A stretch of 64,000 bases of DNA, taken from contig JBHLMN010000013.1 of the NCBI GenBank assembly GCA_048938105.1, positions 64,001-128,000 of the forward strand, given 5' to 3'. Of this stretch, positions 5,539 to 48,518 are shown piece after piece (the stretch's first letter is position 1; each line of letters starts with the position of its first letter). The notes beneath the pieces were generated by a model. That model made no database searches and was not told the origin of the DNA. It saw only the letters and a program-made list of their open reading frames with translations. A program made the position numbers and the translations under genes. The stretch comes from Promethearchaeota archaeon. GTDB taxonomy: Archaea; Asgardarchaeota; Heimdallarchaeia; Hodarchaeales; Hodarchaeaceae.

Positions 5539-6225
5539 TTAGCTCTTTTCGGAATAAAATGGTTTATCTGTTTCTGCAATGATTTTTGTAAATTCTTCTG
5601 GTTTTGCATCGACTTTATAGGTAGAGAAGAATTGCTGAAGAAAATCCATATCATCAGATGAAAGATCTTCGATCTTAGTATTGTTTCCAAGGCTTTTCCA
5701 AGAACCTCTGGTGAAAATTCGACCTGAAATCAGAAAATTACCTACTCTTTCACCAGCGTTTCCTAATAAAATGATATTCCCCGCAAGCATATAGGTTCCA
5801 AGATCATTTCCTACGTCTTTTTCTACAAAAATTGAAGCACCTTTATTCATTGTCCCTAGAAAATCTCCACAAGTTCCCATAATGACTACTTTTCCTCCAT
5901 AGCAATAAGGGGCTGCACAATAACCAGCATTACCTTTGACAATAATTTCTCCATCAATCATGTTATCTCCAATGTATTTCCCAACACTTCCTTCAATGAT
6001 TAATTTAGCTCCCGAATTCAGCATACCAACGTAATCACCTACAGAAGTCTTAATAATAACTGTACCTTCTCTTAATCCCGAAGCAATACCATTTAATAGA
6101 TCACAATTAGTAACAGTTACTGTACCATTCTCCTTAAGTATACTCTTTATTTCTTGATTGATATTTTTTAATTTTAATCCTATTAAATCGGTTGGACTAA
6201 CAGCTACTACATCCATTACATTCAC
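5539..6225 (-). CDS. gltB3: Glutamate synthase GXGXG beta-helix subunit (GltB3/FwdC-like)
   Basis: Repeated G-x-x-G-x-x-x-G-x-x-M-x-x-G units; adjacent to gltB2. Confidence 0.85.
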   Translation of the reverse strand: MNVMDVVAVSPTDLIGLKLKNINQEIKSILKENGTVTVTNCDLLNGIASGLREGTVIIKTSVGDYVGMLNSGAKLIIEGSVGKYIGDNMIDGEIIVKGNAGYCAAPYCYGGKVVIMGTCGDFLGTMNKGASIFVEKDVGNDLGTYMLAGNIILLGNAGERVGNFLISGRIFTRGSWKSLGNNTKIEDLSSDDMDFLQQFFSTYKVDAKPEEFTKIIAETDKPFYSEKS

Positions 6226-12876: not shown

Positions 12877-13944
12877 ATGAAAAAGATTCTTGAAGATAAT
12901 TTGAACTTAAAAATTTTAGAACTAATATGTGCAGGTGAGGGGGTCTCTGTCAATACTACTGAACTATCAAAAGTTCTAGGTAAGCATCGAAATACCATAA
13001 AAAATAATATTGCTAAGCTATTCGAACACGAAATCATAGAAAAGCCCTTTTATCCTTTCTCTTATCTTTTTAAGGAATGGCCTCTTCTTGTCATTGAAAA
13101 AGCAAATTTTCAAAGAAACTTGAAAACAAATGTTTTTATTGAAAAGGATCCAGTTATATGGGCAGCTTTTTTTGTTAAGGAAAATGAATACAACACATTT
13201 CTAATTGAATTTCATAAGGATTTATATTCTTATCAAAATTGGAAAGAAAGTATAATCAAAGAGGCAAAGATTACTCTTAAGGAGGAAACCTATCCATCTG
13301 AGGCAATTTTTTTAACAATGAGAAATTTAATTAAGTATGAGCCAACAATCGCAGTGCAAATATTAGAAACTAATTATAAAAACCATCATCATCAAGAGCT
13401 AAATGGCTTAAAGCTTAGTGATTTCAGGCTTGAACTTATTAAACTTCTTTTAACTGGGAAATGTATTAGAACTAATGAGTATCACATTAGTGATATGCTT
13501 GATGTCCATCGTCGCACTGTTAAACGTCGAATTGAAAAATTATTAGAACATAGAATAATTGATAGTCCAGTTTGTTGCTTCCCAAGAGTTTGGGTGCCAC
13601 CAAAATATTTTCTGGTCTTTTCTTTATTTGAAATAAAGAATAAAAATGAGTTGGTATTGAGAACATTAAGGAATGATCCCCATGTTCCAATTCTTTTCAG
13701 AGCTGTTGTAGATAAATTTAATCTTGCTCTCTTTAGCAATTTTTATAAAATGGAAGATTTTTTGGAATGGGCGGAAGAATATGATCAAAGATTTCCTGGA
13801 TGCATTGGAGCAGTCAGGAATACATTTCTTTCTCCCTCCATGACTTTCTCTATTGCCCATAATTATGTTACTCTCACATTTATTCAAAATATTGCTAATC
13901 GTTTACGAGGTAAGGTATTTGTTGAAATGATGAAAGAAAGCTAA
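12877..13944 (+). CDS. Tandem-duplicated Lrp/AsnC-type transcriptional regulator
   Basis: Two wHTH units (ELSKVLGKHRNTIKNNIAKL and HISDMLDVHRRTVKRRIEKL), each followed by an alpha/beta RAM-like domain. Confidence 0.7.
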   Translation: MKKILEDNLNLKILELICAGEGVSVNTTELSKVLGKHRNTIKNNIAKLFEHEIIEKPFYPFSYLFKEWPLLVIEKANFQRNLKTNVFIEKDPVIWAAFFVKENEYNTFLIEFHKDLYSYQNWKESIIKEAKITLKEETYPSEAIFLTMRNLIKYEPTIAVQILETNYKNHHHQELNGLKLSDFRLELIKLLLTGKCIRTNEYHISDMLDVHRRTVKRRIEKLLEHRIIDSPVCCFPRVWVPPKYFLVFSLFEIKNKNELVLRTLRNDPHVPILFRAVVDKFNLALFSNFYKMEDFLEWAEEYDQRFPGCIGAVRNTFLSPSMTFSIAHNYVTLTFIQNIANRLRGKVFVEMMKES

Positions 13945-36689: not shown

Positions 36690-37565
36690 TTATTTTGATA
36701 AGAAAGAGAGAACAGCCTCGAAAAACTCATTGGGAGATTCGATCATAGGCCAATGACCACATTTTTCGATTACAACATGATTTGCGCCAGGTATTTGTTC
36801 GTGAAGAAGTTTAGACCCTAAAACAATATGAGGCATATCATCATCGCCATTGATAATTAATGTTGGAACATTTATATGGCGAATTACTTCTCTGAGATCA
36901 TAATTAGATGCTTCATAATTATTGAAGTATTGATGAGGTTTTGCTGAAACAATCATATTCATCAAATAAGTATTGACTTGTGAAGAAACCTTGTCAAAAT
37001 CATAGAAATGGATTACTGGCAGTAAGATCTTCAACAAAACTCTTTCTTTCTCATCCGTAGAAAGAGAATCATTGATTTGAAGCTTTTTAAGGGCAGATGC
37101 TGCCTCCTTATACCCTTTCCTATTTCTTAACCAACTATGATAATTTCCAAGGTTAATGTGAGGAGTAGTATCAATTAGAATTAAGCATTCGACCATTTTT
37201 ATATATTTAAGTGCATATTTCAGGGCAACAAATCCACCATGACTATGAGCAGCAATTGCGATTTGTGGAACCCCAAGATAAATTCTAAGGGATTCAATAT
37301 CTTCAACATATTCGTCCATACTATATGCACTAGGATCATTTATTCGCTGTGAACGGCCAATCCCACGAGGTTCAAGATAAACCACTGTTCTAATCTTCTC
37401 AAGTGGTTTAAGAGTTTCAATATAAGGAGTAGCATCTCCAGCCCAGCCAGCACCCCCTGGTTGTACTAGTAAGATTGGGCCGCTTCCCTGTACATAATAC
37501 CATATTTCTATTCCTCGAATATTTGCGAAATGCTCCCCTGGAGAAAGCATGTCATTATGACTCAT
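36690..37565 (-). CDS. Alpha/beta hydrolase (proline iminopeptidase-like)
   Basis: RGIGRS, AHSHGG nucleophile, GDDD and CGH. The start is re-assigned to ATG 37565, which is preceded by GAAAGGA; the ORF-track extension runs through non-coding structured DNA. Confidence 0.85.
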   Translation of the reverse strand: MSHNDMLSPGEHFANIRGIEIWYYVQGSGPILLVQPGGAGWAGDATPYIETLKPLEKIRTVVYLEPRGIGRSQRINDPSAYSMDEYVEDIESLRIYLGVPQIAIAAHSHGGFVALKYALKYIKMVECLILIDTTPHINLGNYHSWLRNRKGYKEAASALKKLQINDSLSTDEKERVLLKILLPVIHFYDFDKVSSQVNTYLMNMIVSAKPHQYFNNYEASNYDLREVIRHINVPTLIINGDDDMPHIVLGSKLLHEQIPGANHVVIEKCGHWPMIESPNEFFEAVLSFLSK

Positions 37566-37621
37566 TCTTCTACCGTTCCTTTCGTAATAGGCTTCTCTCG
37601 CCAAATATATGAAAATATTGC

Positions 37622-37860
37622 GAGTACCTATCCACCCGCTCAAGGGCGAATGGAGCCCCCGCCAGGATGGTTGGGCGGGATACCTGTCCCCGTATAGGAC
37701 ACAGGCGTTGGAGTCAGACCAGTTTGAACTACGTGGACCCAGAGGATTTGATGTCACTTTACTTGATAGAGTCTTTCGCTAGCGTGCTCATCACCCAGCA
37801 ATCATTAAAACCGAGGTGTAGACGTTACTAGTTCACATTCCAAACAGTTCAGTGACTAAA
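37622..37860 (+). ncRNA. GC-rich structured segment resembling an IS200/IS605 HEARO/IscB omega RNA (orphan, no nuclease ORF)
   Basis: Consecutive hairpins (TCCA/TGGA 37631-37654, CCCGCC/GGCGGG 37658-37679, CCTGT/ACAGG 37683-37705), followed by GACCAG (37717), ACTACGT (37728) and AAACAGTTC (37842). Confidence 0.35.
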
Positions 37861-38020
37861 TTCATCAGTTAAATGTTCCTTATTACACCTCCAGCGGATT
37901 TGGTGCTAAGATAGATTTCCTTTGAGGGGGACTAATCTAGTCATAAATTATTCTCCCTTAACCTTTATATACTCACAATTTTCCGGGATGCCTCTAATTG
38001 ATCTTGTCCCGTGGACATTT

Positions 38021-38050
38021 TCCTAGAAATTCCTAGATTCTCCTAGAAAT
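38021..38050 (+). repeat. 3 x 10-bp tandem repeat TCCTAGA(A/T)(A/T)(T/C)
   Basis: tcctagaaat tcctagattc tcctagaaat. Confidence 0.8.
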
Positions 38051-38162
38051 CATCAACAGATATATACCCTTTGATTAGTTGTATTCAATAACATCAATCA
38101 ACATTCTAAAACGTGAGATATTTAAAATCACTCTAGGAAGATGGTTTATGGATGGATTTGAA

Positions 38163-38234
38163 ATGAAAACAATACGAATCGAAGAAATGAACTGGCAAGC
38201 TATTAAGGAAGCCATTAACCAGGATTATAAATAA
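38163..38234 (+). pseudogene. 5' fragment of an interrupted creatininase-family gene
   Basis: MKTIRIEEMNWQAIKEAINQ(DYK*) is a typical creatininase N-terminus and joins in frame to GYLTVVFGIGSIEQHGPH at 46635. Confidence 0.9.
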
Positions 38235-38235
38235 C
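38208..38235 (+). other. Left junction (attL), dif/Xer-like site GAAGCCATTAA-CCAGGA-TTATAAATAAC
   Basis: 11-6-11 layout with TAA-N6-TTA; contains the core TAACCAGG (38216-38223), which is repeated at the right junction. Confidence 0.75.
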
Positions 38236-38343
38236 AGAATGATTTTATTTCCCTCTATTTCTAAAAAACTTGTTACACATGATACAAAATATAATAATCC
38301 CACGTATGAGAGCTTTATTGAATTAAATTTTGGGGATATATGC

Positions 38344-39363
38344 ATGATTAAACTTCAATTTAAAATAGTAAACGAGTTTGAAATATCTGAAAATGCAATC
38401 GTTGGGTGGTTAAAGTCAGTTAATGAGTATGAAAGATATTTCTTAGAGAGAAAACACCTAAATCGACGCAACCTCGGCAATTTCGGAGAATTTATTGGCA
38501 AATTCATTCTTGAAAAGGAGTTTATACTTTATCAAAGAAAAACAAGTGATAGAAAAATGATACCTTGGCTTATGTTTGAAAAAGAAAATGTCTTACTAGA
38601 TAGCTATTATCTTGCCAATTTATTTTCAAATATAGAGGATGTGAGTGTTAAATCGAATATCAAAGCATGGTTGGGTGATGAAAAATTTTTATCCTTAAGA
38701 GAACATACAGGAGAGTATTTAGGAGAAATTTCTTTTGAAAAGAGAGTAGAATTGGGATTGGACGCTAATAATCAAATGATCTGCTGGAAAGAATGGAAAA
38801 AAAAGACTCTTAGATATGGACCTTTCATATTCACGTTTAAAGACCATATATTAGAGGATGTAAGGAAATCATTCATTGATTATTGGAAAAGAGAGACTGG
38901 TGCAAAATTAACGCTTACGGATACATTGGGAGTTCCTTTTGAATATTTAATAAAATGGTTCTTCCCAGAGGGGGAGAAAATAGAATATCAAAAGTGGAGA
39001 GAATATTTATACAAACGAGTGCGTTATTTTGACATTTCTTCTTTTTTGGCAAAAAACACTCAAATTGATGTGAATGATTTTATTTGCACAAATAAGGTAT
39101 TTCTCGATTTAGACTTAGATGTTTGGGGGATTCCAAAGGAAAATTCAGATTTTTTTAATAAAAAGTACTTGTATGCAATTGATTATAAATCACATAGGAT
39201 AAAATGTGTTGATCATGGAAAATATCAGACACCAGCTTTATACTTTCAACAAAGGAATTATGTAAAATCTCTCATCTTAACACAGATTGGGGTATTAATT
39301 CTATCTCTTCAATTTTGCGATTGCGGAAGAATATTTTGTAAATATTTAGTCCCAATGGTGTAA
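38344..39363 (+). CDS. Hypothetical protein, possible PD-(D/E)xK nuclease (ORF track starts it at 38239)
   Basis: NLGNFGE resembles motif I; LDLDVWG...AIDYKS resembles D...(D/E)xK. Confidence 0.45.
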   Translation: MIKLQFKIVNEFEISENAIVGWLKSVNEYERYFLERKHLNRRNLGNFGEFIGKFILEKEFILYQRKTSDRKMIPWLMFEKENVLLDSYYLANLFSNIEDVSVKSNIKAWLGDEKFLSLREHTGEYLGEISFEKRVELGLDANNQMICWKEWKKKTLRYGPFIFTFKDHILEDVRKSFIDYWKRETGAKLTLTDTLGVPFEYLIKWFFPEGEKIEYQKWREYLYKRVRYFDISSFLAKNTQIDVNDFICTNKVFLDLDLDVWGIPKENSDFFNKKYLYAIDYKSHRIKCVDHGKYQTPALYFQQRNYVKSLILTQIGVLILSLQFCDCGRIFCKYLVPMV

Positions 39364-39874
39364 TGTATTCTTTTCAAAATTATAGCATGAGGATTAAATA
39401 GATGAACGTTACCTAATGGTTCATATTTAATGCTTATGGCTCCATTTGATATTGATGGAGAAAAAGCTAATGAATATATTATTAAACAATCTATTAAGTC
39501 TATTATTAGTCTTTTCGGGATTTTCATTAGGCCAATGCAACATCCATACACGAGTATTCTCAGTCTTGAGTAATGCGTTCTATGATCCTGAAATTTTCAA
39601 AGTATTACATAAACAAGGATTACTCGAAAAAACAAACAATATAGGTCAATGGAAGATTAAAGAGTCCTCCTACACCTTTTTACAAATATTTATTTGTAGA
39701 AAGGCTCTTTTATATCTGTTCTTTAAGAAACATATCGCAGTCACTTTTGTTCGGTATATTACTAATAGAAATTTTATAGAATCAATGTATACATTATGTA
39801 TTAGGTACGGGTACCTTACAGACGTAGTGCAAAATCTTAAATAGATGAAACGATTCTTTCTAGACTGATTAACA

Positions 39875-39997
39875 TTGATAGACTTAACGCCATTATATAA
39901 TGGACTTTGGACAATCCTTGGAGTCATTTTAGTCTTAGGACTCATAGCATACTTCGGTGATCTACTAGTATCATTTATAGATAAGATTAGTAAATAA
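39875..39997 (+). CDS. 40-aa single-TM small protein
   Basis: Manual translation from TTG: (M)IDLTPLYNGLWTILGVILVLGLIAYFGDLLVSFIDKISK*; below the ORF-track cutoff. Confidence 0.45.
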   Translation: MIDLTPLYNGLWTILGVILVLGLIAYFGDLLVSFIDKISK

Positions 39998-40109
39998 TCA
40001 GAATTCAAAATAAAGATGATTTCAAGAGTATGAGGGAAGACCACCTCCTCTCAGTCAGGAGTGGCATTATTTATTTTTTATAGGCATATTATAGGAATAA
40101 GAGGAGACG

Positions 40110-40373
40110 ATGAGAATGAGTAATCAAATTTGTATAAGCTGTGGCAATAAAGCCAAGTACAATTGCTTGAATTGTAACAGACCAATTTGTGGTAGATGTA
40201 GAAGTAAACAGAAGAAGATCAAGGATGAATCTCTCCTTAGTTTAATAGGAAGTACAGCAGATAGTCTATATTACCGTCCTGCTGGGTTATGTAAGGATTG
40301 TAGACCTATTGTATTAATGAAAAGAGGAATCGATACTTATTTTAAATTGATTGATATAATAAGAATTAACTAA
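40110..40373 (+). CDS. Small Cys-rich zinc-finger protein
   Basis: Four CxxC pairs; GAGGAG upstream. Confidence 0.65.
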   Translation: MRMSNQICISCGNKAKYNCLNCNRPICGRCRSKQKKIKDESLLSLIGSTADSLYYRPAGLCKDCRPIVLMKRGIDTYFKLIDIIRIN

Positions 40374-40390
40374 GGGAGGTTAGATGATTT

Positions 40391-41038
40391 ATGAAATGTC
40401 CGCATTGCACAGTTGAAATATTCGCAGATAAAAAATACGAACAAATTTACAATTTTTCTGATAGAAAAGGAGATTGGAGATTAGTTTTTTTCAAATGTCC
40501 TAGTTGTATGAATTTTACTTTTGATCTAGAGAATGGAAACCGTAGTAAAACTGCGTTTGATATAAAAGAAACAATTAGAGTATATCCTAAAGGCAGCTCA
40601 CGTCCTCCTTGTCCTCAAGAAGTTCCTCAACATGTAGCAGAAGACTATACAGAAGCTTGCTTGGTTCTTATTGATAGTCCAAAAGCCTCTGCTGCATTAA
40701 GTAGACGCTGTCTTCAAAATATTCTTCGAGAAGCTGCTGAAGTTAATCCTAGCAATCTTTCAACAGAAATTCAAGAGGTATTAGATGGTAAAACTTTACC
40801 TACTTACATTGCGGAATCTATAGATGCGGTAAGGAATATTGGTAATTTTGCAACTCATCCAAATAAAAGCAATAGTACAGGTGAGATATTACCCGTCGAA
40901 CCAGAAGAAGCAGAATGGAATTTAGATGTACTAGAAGCATTATTTGACTTTTATTATGTCCAACCAGCTAAGATACAAAAAAAGAAGGGTGCATTAAATA
41001 AAAAATTAAAAGAAGCAGGTAAGAAACCTATGAAGTGA
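40391..41038 (+). CDS. Zn-ribbon plus DUF4145 (HEPN-like) protein
   Basis: CPHC/CPSC; DYTEA..SPKASAALSRRCLQ; R-NIGN-xx-H; GGAGG RBS. Confidence 0.85.
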   Translation: MKCPHCTVEIFADKKYEQIYNFSDRKGDWRLVFFKCPSCMNFTFDLENGNRSKTAFDIKETIRVYPKGSSRPPCPQEVPQHVAEDYTEACLVLIDSPKASAALSRRCLQNILREAAEVNPSNLSTEIQEVLDGKTLPTYIAESIDAVRNIGNFATHPNKSNSTGEILPVEPEEAEWNLDVLEALFDFYYVQPAKIQKKKGALNKKLKEAGKKPMK

Positions 41039-41050
41039 GGAATTAATATA

Positions 41051-41755
41051 ATGACCAAAAAGATCTGTTTTTTAATTTGTCCTATTGGTAAGGAAGGTAG
41101 TCCAGAGAGAAAGAGAGCTGACCAGCTTTATAACCACATTGTGATTGAAATATTGAAAGAATATGATTTTGAAGTCATTAGAGCAGATAAAATCGGTAAA
41201 CCAGGAATAATTACTCTACAGATTATTGAACAGTTAAATAGTGCTGACTTGGTTATTGCTGATTTGAAAGGGCATAATCCTAACGTGTTTTATGAGCTCG
41301 GGATTCGTCATGTCATTGGAAAACCTATAATTCAGATATATCATCCTGATGAACGAATCCCTTTCGATGTATCTGGATTAAGAAGCATTACACTTGATAT
41401 ACAAGACTTAGATAGTGTAAAAAATTGCATAACAGAGCTAAAAGAGCAAGTAGAATCGATTTTGGAAAATCCTGAGGAATTAACATCACCTTATACTACT
41501 GCTATTGATTATCAAACACTAAGATCAAGTGAAAATCCGATTGGAACAGCTTTAGCGGATATCAAAGAAAGTATTGAGAGTCTAAGAACACAAATAGAAG
41601 AATTAGAACATTCTACAAGGTTTGTACCAATAACAAGAACGAGATTTGATTTAAGTAAATATTTTACTGATGACAAAGAACGAAAAGCTTACAAAACATT
41701 GCAAGAGGCTTTTGATGCACAACCAACTAATCAAAACAACAATGACGAGATTTAA
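41051..41755 (+). CDS. Nucleoside 2-deoxyribosyltransferase-like (NDT/TIR-like) protein with C-terminal coiled coil
   Basis: CFLICPIG, RAD, ADLVIADL and NPNVFYELG. Confidence 0.8.
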   Translation: MTKKICFLICPIGKEGSPERKRADQLYNHIVIEILKEYDFEVIRADKIGKPGIITLQIIEQLNSADLVIADLKGHNPNVFYELGIRHVIGKPIIQIYHPDERIPFDVSGLRSITLDIQDLDSVKNCITELKEQVESILENPEELTSPYTTAIDYQTLRSSENPIGTALADIKESIESLRTQIEELEHSTRFVPITRTRFDLSKYFTDDKERKAYKTLQEAFDAQPTNQNNNDEI

Positions 41756-41810
41756 AGCTTATTGCAATGATTACTTACTGAGTACATTAAGGATAGCGAA
41801 TCCTAATATC

Positions 41811-42371
41811 CTATTCCTCTTCTTCTACTTCATTAATTTCATTTAATTCTCTTGATTCTTCAATTAATGGTTGATGCTCGTTCTCCACACTTTTAGTTTC
41901 TTTAATCTCTCCTCTGTGGACATAAAACATAATAGTTAAAAGGAACATAAGGATTATGAAATATACCATAATTCCATTGGTAAATGAGGAGGAATAAGTA
42001 AATATTTCATCTAATGCATAATGCCCTTCCATAAAGTAAATGACCAGAGTAATAATACCTATCACTGATAAAATTATTGTCACAAGGATAATATGTCTTC
42101 CTATTATCTTATTTCTTTCATTTCCAAAGAAAGTATTTACTAGAAAAACGTACGAACTGAAAACACCAATTGTTAAGATCAACCAATTTTGCATTTCGGT
42201 TGGATCATAGGACAATCCATAATCGAGAAAGTATTGCAACATTATAAGACCACAGATAACGAAAGTAAAGCAGAGTGCTTCTTTGTAAGCCTCTTTTAAT
42301 CTTTGAGTATCAAACTTATTCCTAATTCCCTCTAACCTCATCTTGATCTTTTCTCCCATTAATATCAACAA
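41811..42371 (-). CDS. Four-TM membrane protein with acidic tail
   Basis: Four hydrophobic segments. Confidence 0.65.
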   Translation of the reverse strand: MLILMGEKIKMRLEGIRNKFDTQRLKEAYKEALCFTFVICGLIMLQYFLDYGLSYDPTEMQNWLILTIGVFSSYVFLVNTFFGNERNKIIGRHIILVTIILSVIGIITLVIYFMEGHYALDEIFTYSSSFTNGIMVYFIILMFLLTIMFYVHRGEIKETKSVENEHQPLIEESRELNEINEVEEEE

Positions 42372-42399
42372 GTGTTTAAGAAAAACTCAGTTATTCAGT

Positions 42400-42423
42400 T
42401 AAATAAGCCTTTCGAACGCAGAA
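42400..42423 (-). promoter_or_regulatory. BRE/TATA promoter module, copy 1 (TTCTGCGTTCGAAAGGCTTATTTA)
   Basis: 22/24 identical to 46491-46514; CGAAAG followed by an AT-rich box, upstream of the gene starting at 42371. Confidence 0.6.
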
Positions 42424-42528
42424 GAACTCTAAATGTTTTCTCCTGATTACGTACACCTCCCTCCTAATTGTTCATTGAAGTTTTGTTATATTCAATTCCT
42501 GAAATCAGGAGTTTTAATTTAGAACTTC

Positions 42529-43932
42529 TTAGAGAAATCCTCTCCTAATTTCTTTAGATATTTTCTCATAAGTCTTAGGGTTAATGTCAGCCCTTAGAAG
42601 AAGTAAATCAGAAATAGGCTGCCTAATCCCAAAATTATCGAATTTAGAGATGACCTTAATAGCGATCTTTGTGGTAATAATCTCTAAAATCTGATTTAAT
42701 TTTGGGTTTAATTCTTCAAGATTTTCAACGTATATAATTTCTGCTCCTGGCTTGACTCTGGCAAAATATTCTTGAACTTCAGGTGCAATCTTCTTTGTTG
42801 ATACTATTATCGCATAATCAGGTTTATAGAGACCAATTCGGCCTCCAAAAGGATACGCATGTCCCATTGAAAATTCGTTGTCCTTAAGTTCAAACATTAG
42901 CAATGTTCCCTCTAGATCAATAAAAGCATCTATTTCCTCGGTTCCTTCTAATAAATTAAGCAATATTTTATCTCTAGGAATACCGAGCTCGATTAATACT
43001 CTTACTAATTTAGCTGTCATCCAATAGCTATGATCTAACATTCTTTTTAAATCATCTGTCGGACTAAAAAGCGTTTCTATTCTTTCTTCAGATATTGGAT
43101 TACCACAAGAACACAAAACACCCATTTGGGTCATTTTTTCGATCGAATCTTTCGATTGAACTCTATTAATTTGGTTTGAAGTTTTATTACAAATCACAAC
43201 ATACTCTTGTGAAAGGAGATTAACCTTTGTCAATTCTTTAATGATTTCTTGAACTTCTTCTACTTCCCTACCTGCCTTTTTTTCGAGATCTGTGGCTAAT
43301 ATCCCACCTGATCTTTTTATTAAAAGAGCTAGATGTCTAATTGAAGGATTTTCTAGGTATATTGATAGCTCAAGATCATCTTCAGATATATTATTTGAGG
43401 GAATAAACCTTGTTTCTTCACTATTAGAGAGCCCTTCAAATTTTTGGTTTACTGTCTGAAGTTCTTCCCAAGCAAAAGTTAAATCAAGGTCATTTAATAT
43501 TATATTTAAACTGTTTAATAGGTTTTCAAGCTGATCAGGACTCTCATCAACTTTAAGACAACCTACCTCAAGAAAATATTTTCCCTTTTCATCTTTAGAA
43601 TCACCTTTTCTTTCTTCTTCTTCTTTATTTACTAGGATATATAGAAAACCATGTTCATTAGGAGTGTAATAAAGGTCTCCAATTATAGGATTCAAAGATT
43701 CTTTATAATATCTAAAAAGAGAGTAAGATCTATAGATAAAGTCTATCTCCAAATCTCTCATTTTCCTTGTTTTTAAATCTGATTCCTCAACACCGAATGT
43801 TTCAAAAAATCTCTTCTCAGCTTTCGATATTAACGGGTTGAATCCCTCTTCAGCTAGTTTATCTATAATAGAGTCGAAATATTCTATTTTATAATCAAAA
43901 GGAGTTATTTTCCTTTTTATTTTTATTGTCAT
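42529..43932 (-). CDS. wHTH/Zn-ribbon protein with C-terminal restriction-endonuclease-like (Mrr-type PD-(D/E)xK) domain
   Basis: EEIDAF..LLMFELKD and AIIVST; helix-turn-helix segment DLEKKAGREVEEVQEIIKEL; ICNK/LCSCG. Confidence 0.6.
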   Translation of the reverse strand: MTIKIKRKITPFDYKIEYFDSIIDKLAEEGFNPLISKAEKRFFETFGVEESDLKTRKMRDLEIDFIYRSYSLFRYYKESLNPIIGDLYYTPNEHGFLYILVNKEEEERKGDSKDEKGKYFLEVGCLKVDESPDQLENLLNSLNIILNDLDLTFAWEELQTVNQKFEGLSNSEETRFIPSNNISEDDLELSIYLENPSIRHLALLIKRSGGILATDLEKKAGREVEEVQEIIKELTKVNLLSQEYVVICNKTSNQINRVQSKDSIEKMTQMGVLCSCGNPISEERIETLFSPTDDLKRMLDHSYWMTAKLVRVLIELGIPRDKILLNLLEGTEEIDAFIDLEGTLLMFELKDNEFSMGHAYPFGGRIGLYKPDYAIIVSTKKIAPEVQEYFARVKPGAEIIYVENLEELNPKLNQILEIITTKIAIKVISKFDNFGIRQPISDLLLLRADINPKTYEKISKEIRRGFL

Positions 43933-44081
43933 TGTTAAACCCCTCTCTAAATGTACGGTTTTTCGGCTTTACTTAAAAAATCTCTTATTTAACCAAAGAT
44001 ATTTGTTCCCCTTGTTTTTATCTTTAGAATAATACTAATTCTTTAGTCTCATGATTATTTCTCTTAAATATCTTAATTAGA

Positions 44082-45157
44082 TTAGGTCGGAGTAACCTTA
44101 AGGAATCCAAAACCAATTAACTCTTTTATCAAGTCCATTGCTTTTGCTTTTAGCATATCTTTATCAAAAGAGATGTAACCTAAATCACTAAAATCACTGG
44201 CGAGACTTACTCCTGTTTCTTTAAGAATAACAATTTTTTTCCCGTATAAAACACCAGCTGCTCCTAATTCGAATACTGCATTATCACTCGGTCTAAAAAT
44301 CTCATTATCATTCTCATCAATGTACTTTTCATCAGCAGTGAATATTACAATCGCAGATGTACATTTATGCATCAAATCAGCTATTTTTTCTGATATGGGA
44401 CGTCCTATATGTGGTTCATCAACTGCAACGCTGTAAGGAACTTTAAATTCATCTAGTATGTTCTTAAGTTGCTCCAGTGGTTTTCTTTTTTTTCCATGAA
44501 TTATAAAAATCTTGTTAATATGTGGTTTTTCAATTAGAATAGCAGGGGGTGCTTCTACAGGCTCCTCTTCTTTCACCACTAATCCAAGATCTTCCATTTC
44601 TTCTAGTTCAGAGATCTCTTCATGCGTTGCTGGTACTCTAGTAGAAAGATTATCTAATCGTACATATGTGCTACCACTAATATCTTCCAAGATACCTAGT
44701 TCTGTTCCATTTTTAGTAATCATCTCATAACAAGTTGTGACATCATCCTCAGGAATTTTAAAGTCTCTAGTAAATGTATTCTGGATAGGTTCTAATTGGG
44801 GGAATTTATGAGTATCGTAACGCTCGAAAAATACTTTGAATACTTTAATAGAAAGCAAAGCCTCAAGAAGTGCATTATTTTTCTCTTCAATATTTTGTGA
44901 AGCAACTATTGATCTACCTCGTTCCGTTAGTGAAACACTCTTTGCAGCAAACTCCCTTTCGTAAGACCAAATTGACCTGAAGCAGTTATAAGGTTTCTGA
45001 ACCAGCTACTTGTTGGTGATTGCTCCAAAACCTTTGCAAGGTCTAAAATAGCATATGGTTCTCCTGCATTATAATCCTGGATCGCTTGTGCCACCCTTAC
45101 TGAATCCATTAAACTCTTTCTGGGAAATAGACTTTTTCTTCTCTTTTTCTTAGCCAA
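44082..45157 (-). pseudogene. Frameshifted gene for a wHTH plus CAP12/Pycsar-type TIR-like nucleotide-binding protein
   Basis: The 76-aa and 258-aa ORFs join if one base is restored near 44950 (GLTKGS-x-AAKSVSLTERGRSIV..LLEALLSIK). The C-terminus has KIFIIHGK, AIVIFTADE and RPSDNAVFELG. Confidence 0.8.
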
Positions 45158-45202
45158 TTCCTACTCACCTAATTCTTTAATGTTATTTTATGTTATTCTC
45201 CC

Positions 45203-45601
45203 TTAAATTCTACCAAAAATAATCATTAAAAGAAATATAATAAATGCAATCGTAAGAAAAAAGCTAGTAAACCCCGAACCACCACTCATTGTATATATGT
45301 CTCTTCCTAATTTGGTAGTTTTTTTAACACGATTATAATTTCTGGTTGGCGATACAACATCTGTGATGGCTTTTTTTGTTTCTTTTTTAACTCTTGAAGA
45401 TGCCAGTCTTTGTTTAGTAAAATCCGACCACGATTTATTTCTTTTAATTTTACCATATCTGTCAAAAGACATCGCTCTTGTTTTACCACGAACGTTTATC
45501 CTTCGCCAATCCTCTTCTTCACCACCTTTTATTGCTGCAAGCTTAATAATTATTAGAATTCCGATTATAGCAAATACTAATATAATTATTTCCTCAATCA
45601 T
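45203..45601 (-). CDS. Basic protein with N- and C-terminal TM helices
   Basis: Two terminal hydrophobic segments around a Lys/Arg-rich middle. Confidence 0.6.
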   Translation of the reverse strand: MIEEIIILVFAIIGILIIIKLAAIKGGEEEDWRRINVRGKTRAMSFDRYGKIKRNKSWSDFTKQRLASSRVKKETKKAITDVVSPTRNYNRVKKTTKLGRDIYTMSGGSGFTSFFLTIAFIIFLLMIIFGRI

Positions 45602-45893
45602 GGTGAGACCCCTATACTTTTACCAAATTAGTAAGAAATCTGATTGTAAGTTATTTACCTTACTCACATTACTCTAACCAATTTCTCGGTCATGTTCTCT
45701 AGGAAAATCATCTATTTAAGATTTGCCTTCTAAGAGCTATATTCTTGTAGTGCCTAACTTCTGTACCTAAGGCCACCATATTTAAAATAATACATTCTTT
45801 AAAAAAGAATTAAAAGCCATTAAATACTCTATTCATAATAAGAAAGGTGATTTGATAATGAAATAAAATACTGAGGCTATTTTGACATTATTT

Positions 45894-46385
45894 TCATATA
45901 CCATTTAATTTAAAGATCAAAGAGATTGTGAAAAACAGAAAAAATATAAGAAACAACGATTCACCAGTGAAATAAGCACGATTGCACCATTTTTCTTTGT
46001 TGAGAACAAATTCAACTAATAATTCCTTATTTTTGAGTTTTCTCCATTCACTGGCCTTAATCTTTAGATGTTCTAAATAAGATTGTTTTTTTCCATTTTT
46101 ATCCAAGGGAAAATGGCTTTTAAACAGATAAAAATTGCCAGTAATCTCGTCATGATTGCTTCTAATGTACATAATTACAATTAACCAGACAATAGTAATT
46201 AGTAGAAAGATAATCGTATAAAATCCTAGATCTGCTCTCCAAGCAAAATAAACCATTCCAATACTGAGAGTAAATAGATAGTGTGTAAACGATAATCTAG
46301 TTTGTAGTCTCTCTTTAACAGCGGAAACAAGATATTCAAAGATCTTATCATCTAAATCAACTTCGTTTTGTTTATTATTAGACAT
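45894..46385 (-). CDS. Three-TM membrane protein (possible defence effector)
   Basis: Hydrophobic segments; AGGTG RBS. Confidence 0.6.
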   Translation of the reverse strand: MSNNKQNEVDLDDKIFEYLVSAVKERLQTRLSFTHYLFTLSIGMVYFAWRADLGFYTIIFLLITIVWLIVIMYIRSNHDEITGNFYLFKSHFPLDKNGKKQSYLEHLKIKASEWRKLKNKELLVEFVLNKEKWCNRAYFTGESLFLIFFLFFTISLIFKLNGI

Positions 46386-46447
46386 ATCAACACCTAATTA
46401 CACTTTAATTTATCTGATTCCCTCTATCCTTCTATTTTTATAGCACA

Positions 46448-46475
46448 AGTGATTATAAAAGTACTTATAAGAAGG
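46448..46475 (+). other. Internal dif/Xer-like site AGTGATTATAA-AAGTAC-TTATAAGAAGG
   Basis: TTATAA-N6-TTATAA; left arm 9/11 identical to the attR left arm. Confidence 0.55.
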
Positions 46476-46490
46476 AATTACCTAAAGAAA

Positions 46491-46514
46491 TAAATAAACC
46501 TTTCGAACACAGAA
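46491..46514 (-). promoter_or_regulatory. BRE/TATA promoter module, copy 2 (TTCTGTGTTCGAAAGGTTTATTTA)
   Basis: Canonical CGAAAG-x-TTTATTTA pointing into the minus-strand cargo genes. Confidence 0.65.
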
Positions 46515-46597
46515 ATATACAATTTGTTGGCAAGATTTTGCGTGGTGTGTAGTTCACATATGCTGAAACAGCTGAATATACAGGTTTTTGTTTTTTT

Positions 46598-46617
46598 TGA
46601 CTTCACTTTTGAAGTCA
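46598..46617. other. Perfect hairpin TGACTTCA-CTTT-TGAAGTCA flanked by T runs, abutting attR (terminator or accessory site)
   Basis: 8-bp inverted repeat ending 2 bp before the attR left arm. Confidence 0.5.
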
Positions 46618-46619
46618 TT

Positions 46620-46647
46620 TTTGATTATAACCAGGGTTATTTAACAG
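46620..46647 (+). other. Right junction (attR), dif/Xer-like site TTTGATTATAA-CCAGGG-TTATTTAACAG
   Basis: 11-6-11 layout; spacer differs from attL by one base. Confidence 0.75.
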
Positions 46648-47324
46648 TAGTTTTTGGGATTGGATCTATTGAACAACATGGACCTCACTTACCAACCAAC
46701 ACGGATGCCTTAATTGGTGATGTTCTAGCTAATAAAGTAGCAGAAAGATTAAAGAATGCTTTACAAGCCCTTACAATGCGGGTAGGTTGTTCGCGTCATC
46801 ATATGGCTTTTCCTGGCACAATTTCGTATAAAGATTCAACTTTGAAAGCTGTTATCCACGATTATGTGCATAGCTTAGTACATCACGGTTTTAAGAACAT
46901 TATTTTAATCCCTAGTCATGGAGGGAATTTTAGACCAACACAAGAAGCGATTGATGAGCTCAAAGAAGAGTATCCCGATAGTAAAATTATTGGTTATACA
47001 GATCTTTTTGGGCTCTTGGATGCTTTACATAGATTTTCAGGGGAATTTGGCGTCACAAAAGAAGAATCTGGAGCACACGCAGGTGAATCTGAAGCTTCTC
47101 TTATGTTAGCTTTGGCAAAAGATCTTGTTAAAGAAGAATCTTTCGAACCTGGATATGTTGGAATAGTTGGACCAGAACAATCACAACTTATTTTTGAAAA
47201 GGGAATGACTGCATTAACAAAAAATGGTATTTTAGGAGATCCAACAAAGGCAACAAGTGATAAAGGCGAAGTATACCTTGAAAATCTAGTAAAACTTCTT
47301 GTTGACGAAATTAAAAGGAATTAA
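46629..47324 (+). pseudogene. 3' part of the interrupted creatininase/mycofactocin-peptidase-family gene
   Basis: GSIEQHGPHLP..D, HHMAFPGT, SHGGN, HAGESE and NGILGDP; the native start lies at 38163. Confidence 0.9.
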
Positions 47325-47432
47325 ATAATTAGTTTTTCTATCTCGCTCCTGAATTTTCCCTTAAAGAATTGAATGATCGGATATTAATGTGAGATTTTTG
47401 ATACAAGCTAAAGCTAAGAGGAATAAGCCAGA

Positions 47433-48518
47433 ATGAAGCAATTAAATTTTGCACTAGTAGGATGTGGACGAATCAGTGATTTGCATTATCGTGGTTATTT
47501 GCTGAATCCCAATGCAACTGTATATGCTATTTGTGATGTAGATATTACCAAAGCACGGGAAAAAGCAGTAGAGTGGAGTATTCCCAAAGAAAGAGTCTAT
47601 TCAGATTTCTCAAGGATGCTCAAAAATGATCAAATAGATGCGGTGGAGCTATTAGTTCCACACCAGCTCCATGCTCCTTTAACTATTGAAGCAGCAGAAG
47701 CAGGAAAACACATCTCTGTACAGAAACCTATGGCGAATTCCCTCAAAGAATGTGATGAGATGATAGCAGCAGCTAGAAAAGCAGGTGTCAAATTTAGAAT
47801 CTTTGAGAATTTTCGCTTTTATCCTCCTTATATTTTAGCAAAAAAGATGATTAATGAAGGAAAACTGGGACATCTCATTTCAATTCATATTAAATTGGGA
47901 GTAGGGACAGGTGGATGGGAAGTACCAAGTGAAGCTTGGATTTGGAGATTCGATCGAGATCAATGTGGAGGAGGGCCGTTGTGTTGGGACGACGGGTACC
48001 ATAAATGGAGTATTGCACGATGGCTTATAGAATCAGAAATTGAATCTGTATATGGACGGATTGACTTCACAGGTATTGTTGAAGATGATGGTGAGCCTAA
48101 AGTGGATTCCCCAGCAAAATTCATCTGGAAGTATAAAACACCAAGAACTTATGGCAGCATGGATGCCACTTATATGCGAAATTGTGAATTTCCTTCAAAA
48201 TATTACCCTGCAGATGAACGCGTTGAGATTACGGGGGATAATGGTTATATTTGGATCAATCAATGTACAGCGAACACCGTACGAAATGAAGCACCATTAA
48301 TCACTTATATCGGGGGAGAATTGGAGGAGTTTTTCGATATAGAGACTGATTGGCAGGCTAGTTTTACAAATGCTGTTAATCACTTCATTGAAGCGATAAT
48401 TGCTGGTACTAAACCAGAAATTAATCCCGAGGAAGGGAAAAAAATACAACAATTTGCGCAGGCAGCTCATTTATCTTGTAAAACCCATAGAGAAGAACAA
48501 CCAGATAAAATGGTATAA
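47433..48518 (+). CDS. Gfo/Idh/MocA-family oxidoreductase
   Basis: [24 protein letters not shown]. Confidence 0.9.

Follow-up and report, generated by a model that had tools for sequence, protein, structure and literature searches.

The DNA analyzed here, referred to as the window, is a stretch of 64,000 nucleotides from a Promethearchaeota archaeon, representing positions 64001-128000 of contig C4 in a genome assembly (G000) of 5.85 Mb in 65 contigs. Within it, a gene of the creatininase family is interrupted by an island whose cargo is mostly of defence type, namely a PD-T7-4/DUF4145 gene, two TIR-like genes and a Card1/Mrr-like nuclease gene, as recognized with Pfam and PADLOC and, for the nuclease, ESM Atlas. 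The gene starts with an ATG at 38163 and opens with MKTIRIEEMNWQAIKEAINQ (38163-38222), after which three foreign codons, DYK, and a stop follow. Its frame is picked up again at 46635 as GYLTVVFGIGSIEQHGPH... and continues to a stop that ends at 47324. The gene is cut after codon 20, the insertion point being codon 20/21. An octamer, TAACCAGG, forms a direct repeat at 38216-38223 and 46628-46635, 8,412 bp apart, and the insert measures 8,412 bp with one repeat copy counted in. The split of the gene, its resumption 8,412 bp further on and the repeat shared by the joints had been described in an initial annotation of the window, and the sequence at both joints matches that description.

A true, precise single insertion into the creatininase gene is confirmed by comparison with related genomes. 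With the C-terminal 230 residues of the creatininase as query, uninterrupted orthologues were found in G014, G009 (the complete chromosome CP070695), G015 and G011, displaying 74-82% identity and open frames of 252-258 residues. At these loci the N-terminus is joined directly to the remainder, for example as ...KEAINQGYTTVVFGIGSIEQHGPH, and the read-through is ...EAINQGYTTVVFGIGSIEQHGPH. Since four related species read straight through, the empty site exists in relatives, where the initial annotation had proposed looking for the intact gene. Misassembly, which had been named as a possible source of error, is unlikely at the joints, because a 21.7-kb Logan contig, probably from the source run, covers 37000-47222 with zero differences and crosses both joints at a flat depth of 15.8.

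No integrase, transposase or recombinase domain was found in the open reading frames (ORFs) of the island with Pfam, PADLOC, NCBIfam and PHROGs. The tyrosine recombinase model PF00589 had no match in the window, and the three matches of the genome lie on other contigs. The description of the island as integrase-free therefore stands, in that none of its ORFs carries a recognizable integrase or transposase domain. It should also be mentioned that an ATG at 46560, inside the end of the island, is in frame with the 3' creatininase fragment, with no stop up to the joint. A chimeric creatininase starting there and devoid of the native 20 N-terminal residues could be produced.

Joint sites and the genus-wide site family

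Each joint can be read as a 28-bp site with two 11-bp arms around a 6-bp spacer (attL and attR in Table 1). In the element site rebuilt from the two, TTTGATTATAA-CCAGGA-TTATAAATAAC, 8/11 arm positions are complementary, for which we estimate a chance of about 0.002 at one fixed place. The arms of the empty target, GAAGCCATTAA-CCAGGG-TTATTTAACAG, display dyad symmetry at only 4/11 positions. Element site and target share TAACCAGG followed by TTAT and agree at 12/15 positions around the core, while the last base of the spacer is A at attL and G at attR. The sequence TAACCAGGnTTAT occurs three times in the genome, two of these occurrences being the joints, and the left end and arm of the island are unique in the genome. 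In the relatives the target reads ...AACCAGGGGTAT or ...AATCAGGGGTAT, a difference which implies that the G000 lineage happened to have the better look-alike. Regarding the 11-6-11 junctions claimed in the initial annotation, the sequences were correct as written, but the reading of the two joints alone is weak. It rises above chance because of the family of sites to which the right end of the island leads. The left arm and spacer of the island are atypical for this family, and the target is only a weak look-alike.

A BLAST comparison with the organism's own genome revealed that the last 140 bp of the island recur at C6:239885-240031 and C3:5800-5938, and its last 30-45 bp on C61, C34, C35 and C52. 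The right arm with about 35 bp inward occurs 7 times in G000, and an exact 23-mer, GAAGTCATTTTTGAnTATAACCA, is present in G003, G009 (five copies), G011, G018 and G020. Approximately 28 distinct copies of the right end were collected from eight species of the genus; the right-end pattern gave zero matches when reversed as a control and zero in 19 genomes of other genera. Every copy stops at the same base as the island joint. In about 27 other copies the joint reads TATAA-CCAACG (rarely one base off), whatever the flank, and the island is the exception. The view of a lone island, taken in the initial annotation, accordingly had to be abandoned in favour of a large family of site-bounded modules and arrays.

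The constancy of this joint also bears on transposition as an origin. A transposon with an 8-bp target-site duplication, its transposase acting in cis or in trans, would account for the perfect 8-bp direct repeat around the insert and for the weak similarity of the inverted ends. However, the core CCAACG after TATAA remains constant whatever the flank, which excludes a target-site duplication, and only a single copy of the core stands between neighbouring modules in the arrays. Furthermore, no transposase domain was found in the island and no Y1/HUH transposase in the G000 genome. Such an origin is hardly credible.

The wider family consists of 28-bp sites with arms ATGTCnnTnAA and TTnAnnGACAT around a 6-bp spacer, usually CCAACG. 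Most right-end copies carry TTnAnnGACAT downstream of CCAACG, and some sites mirror that arm on the left. In the best two-arm site, C53:230098-230125, which reads ATGTCGTATAA-CCAACG-TTTAACGACAT, 9/11 arm positions are symmetric. The spacing ATGTC-N18-GACAT occurs 15 times in the genome, compared with 0-6 times for the other spacings from 12 to 25 and 2 in the reversed control. Similarly, two-arm matches at 14/16 positions or better number 18 with a 6-bp spacer versus 4-7 with spacers of 3, 4, 5, 7, 8 or 9 bp. The 11-6-11 build of the family, which is that of Xer, Cre or IntI-type core sites, is thus statistically supported.

In every array seen, the family sites are co-directional and stand between unrelated gene modules, with one core copy only between neighbours; the arrays lie on chromosomal contigs, including the complete chromosome of G009 (Table 1). 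Best G000 homologues of the genes in the G009 array (47-86% identity) are distributed over at least 8 contigs, in several cases with a family site only a few kb away, and many family sites of G000 lie 1-5 kb from contig ends. This scattering of homologues, together with the position of sites near contig ends, implies that the family marks joints where blocks of genes are exchanged.

Several smaller observations were made at these ends. Close to the right end, an 8-mer, GAAGTCAT, is present twice; the two occurrences form an inverted repeat in some copies of the end and a direct repeat in others, which suggests a protein-binding word rather than a hairpin. Folding of about 25 joints yielded no common long hairpin, and the energies were like those of shuffles (z mostly -1.7 to +1.7); no conserved fold was detected in the 140-bp module either. 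Approximately 100 bp just inside the right end (46492-46600) are shared at 72-77% identity with C6:239885-239990, C3:5840-5938 and G006:C32:316-423, with no conserved fold or ORF, and could represent an accessory binding region or an outward promoter. After the left ends located at G009:3074480-3074510 and 741395-741425 and at G000 C56:197750-197780 and C64:2441-2470 comes TATACGTATCAATATACGTAT, in which the palindrome ATACGTAT is directly repeated; a variant is present at C61:192987 and C6:238514. This sequence may be the site of an accessory protein. On C3, the two-arm sites at 5730-5757 and 13671-13698 are nearly identical (spacer CAAAGG/CAAAGA), and the same 45 bp come after each of them. 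Between them lie 7.9 kb with BNR, TPR-nitrilase and luciferase-like genes. At a distance of only 43 bp from the first there is a right-end site whose spacer is CCAACG, so that sites with different spacers stand side by side.

Proposed recombination mechanism and candidate enzymes

As the island has no recognizable integrase and its sites are of the tyrosine-recombinase type, a recombinase is needed in trans. The insertion almost certainly arose by conservative site-specific recombination, catalysed by a tyrosine recombinase acting in this manner. An integrase-free, trans-mobilized element with Xer-type sites is supported, and the trans-acting tyrosine recombinase proposed in the initial annotation gains support both from the integrase-less island and from the core-site build, with its enrichment specific to the 6-bp spacing. 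The best explanation, to which we assign a probability of about 0.6, is that the island is an integrase-less mobile module of a genus-wide Hodarchaeales site family, inserted at a look-alike site by an enzyme in trans.

According to this proposal, neighbouring co-directional sites would recombine to give a circle carrying one joined site. The circle, with the site TTTGATTATAA-CCAGGA-TTATAAATAAC, would then recombine with the look-alike ATTAA-CCAGGG-TTAT in the creatininase frame, the enzyme being supplied in trans, and the outcome would be 8 identical bases at each joint and a split gene. The A/G mismatch between the joints may reflect exchange across a spacer differing at one base, each joint keeping the version of one strand. 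The joint of the circle would read right end ...GATTATAACCAGG, then A or G, then TTATAAATAAC, and the empty site would read ...GCCATTAACCAGGGTTATTTAAC. The island would represent a family member inserted away from any array. Whereas the insertion, the empty site of the relatives, the absence of a recognizable integrase and the site family with its arrays are observed, the circular intermediate, the recombinase responsible and the reversibility of the event are the parts of the proposal that we infer.

An alternative with the enzyme in cis would make ORF1 an unrecognized recombinase of the island. ORF1 adjoins attL, from which its start is about 120 bp away, or only 15 bp if translation begins at the ATG at 38239; it has no family match, and its reading frame would run without a stop through the joint of a circle. 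On the other hand, no relatives of ORF1 were found among the other family members in G000 or in the genome collection, and among 5.8 billion proteins there are only two, neither of them beside a family site. The AlphaFold2 model of ORF1 (pLDDT 43) is unusable, so that a recombinase fold is neither shown nor excluded by it. We regard this alternative as extremely unlikely.

The search for xerA and other integrases recommended in the initial annotation was productive, since the three PF00589 matches of G000 comprise XerA on C14, a second intact recombinase on C56 and a broken one on C45. XerA (C14:173949-174839) scores 283 bits with NF040815, where the cut-off is 220. Its sequence identity within the genus is 79-91%, and no other tyrosine recombinase is conserved genus-wide. 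This conservation, together with the dif geometry of the sites, makes host XerA the best candidate for the enzyme, although the assignment is tentative and falls somewhat short of even odds. Outside the genus, XerA finds its nearest relatives in the genome collection among bacterial Xer-like proteins (34-41% identity), and the protein scores equally high on bacterial XerC and archaeal XerA models. The four serine-recombinase matches of G000 are all either on other contigs or distant from the mapped family sites.

The same mechanism could instead be driven by a dedicated tyrosine recombinase, either the one at C56:201270-202139 or one borne by a plasmid or virus outside the assembly, with the modules as non-autonomous passengers of members that carry the recombinase. 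The C56 enzyme, of 289 residues, is encoded in an operon with a NikA-like small protein, near an HNH gene. The 2.65-kb stretch between two family sites at C56:200725-203402 holds the NikA-like gene, the recombinase gene and the HNH endonuclease gene, and may itself act as an autonomous module of the family. One of its two flanking sites, about 55 bp upstream of the operon, is complete, with two arms and the family spacer, and heads a co-directional array of at least 5 sites. In G009, the only tyrosine recombinase apart from XerA has two family sites 2.9 kb away. However, linkage is confined to these two loci: at 7 of the 9 loci of second recombinases, including that of a 70% orthologue in G012, the surrounding sequence, about 1-7 kb depending on the extent of the contigs, contains no family site, and no clear co-occurrence with the sites was found across the genus. 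Moreover, the second recombinases of G000 and G009 share only 25% identity, and those of the site-rich genomes 25-43%, while the end of the site is base-identical. A dedicated enzyme is accordingly possible but doubtful, and an enzyme other than XerA or a dedicated or external tyrosine recombinase is improbable.

Several findings weigh against the explanation by a trans-mobilized module of the site family, or against XerA as its enzyme. The island spacer CCAGGR is unique among the approximately 28 right-end copies, and the left arm of the island matches the consensus at only 3/8 specified positions. ORF1 and several small ORFs receive no function from the libraries searched. Second tyrosine recombinases lie in or beside an array in both G000 and G009, which favours a dedicated enzyme. 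No excised, circular or empty-site form was found in the contigs and 1-2 raw reads, where rare forms would be undetectable; for the one run that contains the organism only contigs are stored, and the two runs stored as raw reads, which contribute those 1-2 reads, barely cover it, so that this absence has no bearing on excision. Finally, searches for the chromosomal dif identified no unique, conserved site, so that mimicry of dif is left with no reference. Two candidates for dif were rejected. The best classical palindrome, AGCGAATATAA-TAATAT-TTATATACGCT at C63:53253, is not conserved in 39 relatives, and the subfamily ATGTCGYAAAA-N6-TTTGARGACAT has one to several members per genome, with synteny only between very close relatives. 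According to the initial annotation, the inner ends of characterized archaeal dif sites are TATAA/TTATA.

Comparison with known systems

Examples of integrative mobile elements exploiting Xer (IMEX) are the CTX, VGJ and TLC phages of Vibrio, the gonococcal genetic island and LME-1 of Legionella (PMC5357621, PMC9226527, PMC9765430). The island resembles them in the absence of its own integrase, in the two arms of about 11 bp around a 6-bp spacer, in having one degenerate arm, in the tandem arrays and in the imperfect spacer match, as in CTX. In contrast to these elements, it is located in a coding gene, at codon 20/21, and not at the chromosomal dif, its cargo consists of cellular defence and metabolic genes rather than phage genes, the family comprises dozens of sites at many loci, and the archaeal host has a single Xer. 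The island is therefore not an IMEX in the strict sense. Of the archaeal IMEX suggested in the initial annotation, the lack of an integrase and the Xer-type sites remain, while its proposed mimicry of dif and dependence on XerA are possibilities.

The pdif modules of Acinetobacter plasmids, attributed to XerC/XerD, are likewise small integrase-less modules with 28-bp Xer-type sites, shuffled between replicons and species and often provided with toxin-antitoxin or accessory genes. Two such 28-bp sites are found here at the level of the family; in the island itself the right arm is typical, and the left arm and spacer are atypical. The sites of pdif modules flank the module in inverted orientation, on plasmids. 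Here, they are co-directional and chromosomal in every array seen, including that of the complete G009 chromosome, and form long arrays. In addition, one module has clearly integrated into a gene whose empty site is found in relatives.

An integron origin would make the island a gene cassette of a cluster of attC sites lacking integron-integrases (CALIN), put in at a secondary site by an integron integrase. Integrons and CALINs, including archaeal integrons, share with the present arrays the co-orientation of unrelated cassettes with tyrosine-recombinase sites between them and, in most arrays, the absence of an adjacent integrase; about half of the left ends here read G-TTRRRY, like the attC R' core, and Hodarchaeum genomes with 2-3 attC sites and one IntI were listed by Ghaly et al. 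2022 (PMC9668308). Nevertheless, the sites are compact 28-bp duplex-type sites and not nested imperfect palindromes of 57-141 bp: no attC-type nested hairpin was found, and the folding energies of the joints are like those of shuffles. With the integron integrase model TIGR02249, the two intact recombinases of G000 score 173 and 64 bits against a cut-off of 265, and an IntI with the extra domain is absent from G000. Many modules contain multiple genes, located on both strands and apparently driven by their own promoters. Secondary-site insertion as such is known for integron cassettes. The island is not an integron, and its capture as an integron cassette is very unlikely.

Archaeal elements of the SSV and pTN3 types integrate site-specifically into the chromosome, with short direct repeats, as the island does. 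Such elements encode an integrase, whose gene becomes split in the SSV type when the element integrates, and insert mostly at tRNA genes (PMC8371274, PMC7253208). The island, by comparison, possesses no integrase, whole or split, and its target is a protein-coding frame.

The literature on IMEX and Xer-type elements in archaea and on Asgard mobile elements yielded no description of such a system, in agreement with the initial annotation, to whose author no such element described in Asgard archaea was known. To our knowledge, integrase-less gene capture at Xer-type sites is known only in bacteria, as IMEX and pdif modules, and for archaea, reports are limited to classical integrons, detected by computation alone. 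The present locus offers one datable, polarized event, in which a gene that is intact in four sister species has been cleanly cut by a defence island, and the ends of the island connect it with dozens of modules bounded by such sites throughout the genus. The event supplies concrete attP, attB, attL and attR sequences and two candidate enzymes. Such a system would help to explain how large accessory genomes and defence repertoires are assembled and exchanged in the closest archaeal relatives of eukaryotes. A bolder version, in which XerA, the housekeeping resolvase of chromosome dimers, drives a genus-wide exchange of cassettes via dif-like sites and the island is a live, excisable module that bears antiviral genes and can switch a catabolic gene off and on, is unlikely on present evidence; if true, it would be an archaeal counterpart of integrons.

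Island cargo and minor features

The features of the locus and the arrays are collected in Table 1.

Table 1. Features of the interrupted gene, the island and related arrays. Positions are those of the window unless a contig or another genome is named.
Feature	Position	Strand	Remarks
Creatininase 5' fragment	38163..38222	+	20 codons, then DYK-stop from island DNA; N-terminus matches intact orthologues
attL	38208..38235	+	target left arm GAAGCCATTAA, spacer CCAGGA, island left arm TTATAAATAAC; repeat 38216-38223
Inserted island	38224..46635	.	8,412 bp including one repeat copy; GC about 0.30-0.34 vs 0.35-0.40 in flanks
ORF1	38344..39363	+	339 aa as called (374 aa from ATG 38239); no family match
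Small ORF, 132 aa	39446..39844	+	parts 76-87% identical in DNA to G009 (beside cassette array), G018, G019
B-box/HIT-like zinc-finger protein, 87 aa	40110..40373	+	Pfam/PADLOC search
DUF4145 protein, PD-T7-4 defence model	40391..41038	+	PDLC04109, E 1.9e-21
TIR-like/nucleoside 2-deoxyribosyltransferase-like protein, coiled-coil tail	41051..41755	+	PADLOC TIR effector, E 2e-8
Membrane protein, 186 aa	41811..42371	-	no function assigned
467-aa protein, Card1/Mrr-like nuclease C-terminus	42529..43932	-	ESM Atlas; no recombinase in any library
CAP12/Pycsar-type TIR gene, PDC-S35 model	44082..45157	-	Pfam/PADLOC; TIR part 44082-44858
Two small membrane proteins, 132 and 163 aa	45203..46385	-	no function assigned
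Right-end module, about 140 bp	46492..46636	+	72-77% identity to C6:239885-240031, C3:5800-5938 (G000) and G006
Inverted repeat GACTTC-ACTTTT-GAAGTC	46599..46616	+	inside right end
attR	46620..46647	+	island right arm TTTGATTATAA, spacer CCAGGG, target right arm TTATTTAACAG; repeat 46628-46635
Creatininase 3' fragment	46635..47324	+	229 codons, open; 74-82% identical to four closest orthologues
G009 array	3074510-3086438		UPF0175-family (putative antitoxin) gene pair, PadR + RDD, ABC ATPase, TPR proteins
G000 array	C56 188071-200752		MazE-PIN, MFS transporters, aldo-keto reductase, TPR + PKD proteins
Further G000 arrays	C53 221976-230125; C61 203356-206454; C3

A search of Rfam over 37500-48000 gave no match. 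The 467-aa protein has 61 relatives in bacteria and archaea; the closest is 54% identical, so that no donor copy was found. Compared with 20 genomes of the genus, the island DNA matched in only two short pieces, around 39.5-40.0 kb. These stretches, 39533-39698 and 39933-40051, lie between ORF1 and the zinc-finger gene, overlap the 132-aa ORF, whose product looks like a small winged-helix protein, and are 76-87% identical to G009 at 3088839, adjoining the array, and to G018 and G019. The CAP12-type gene is probably one gene broken by a single frameshift between 44858 and 44927. Its N-terminal part, 44927-45157, is DNA-binding-like, and the two frames overlap in sense around 44900.

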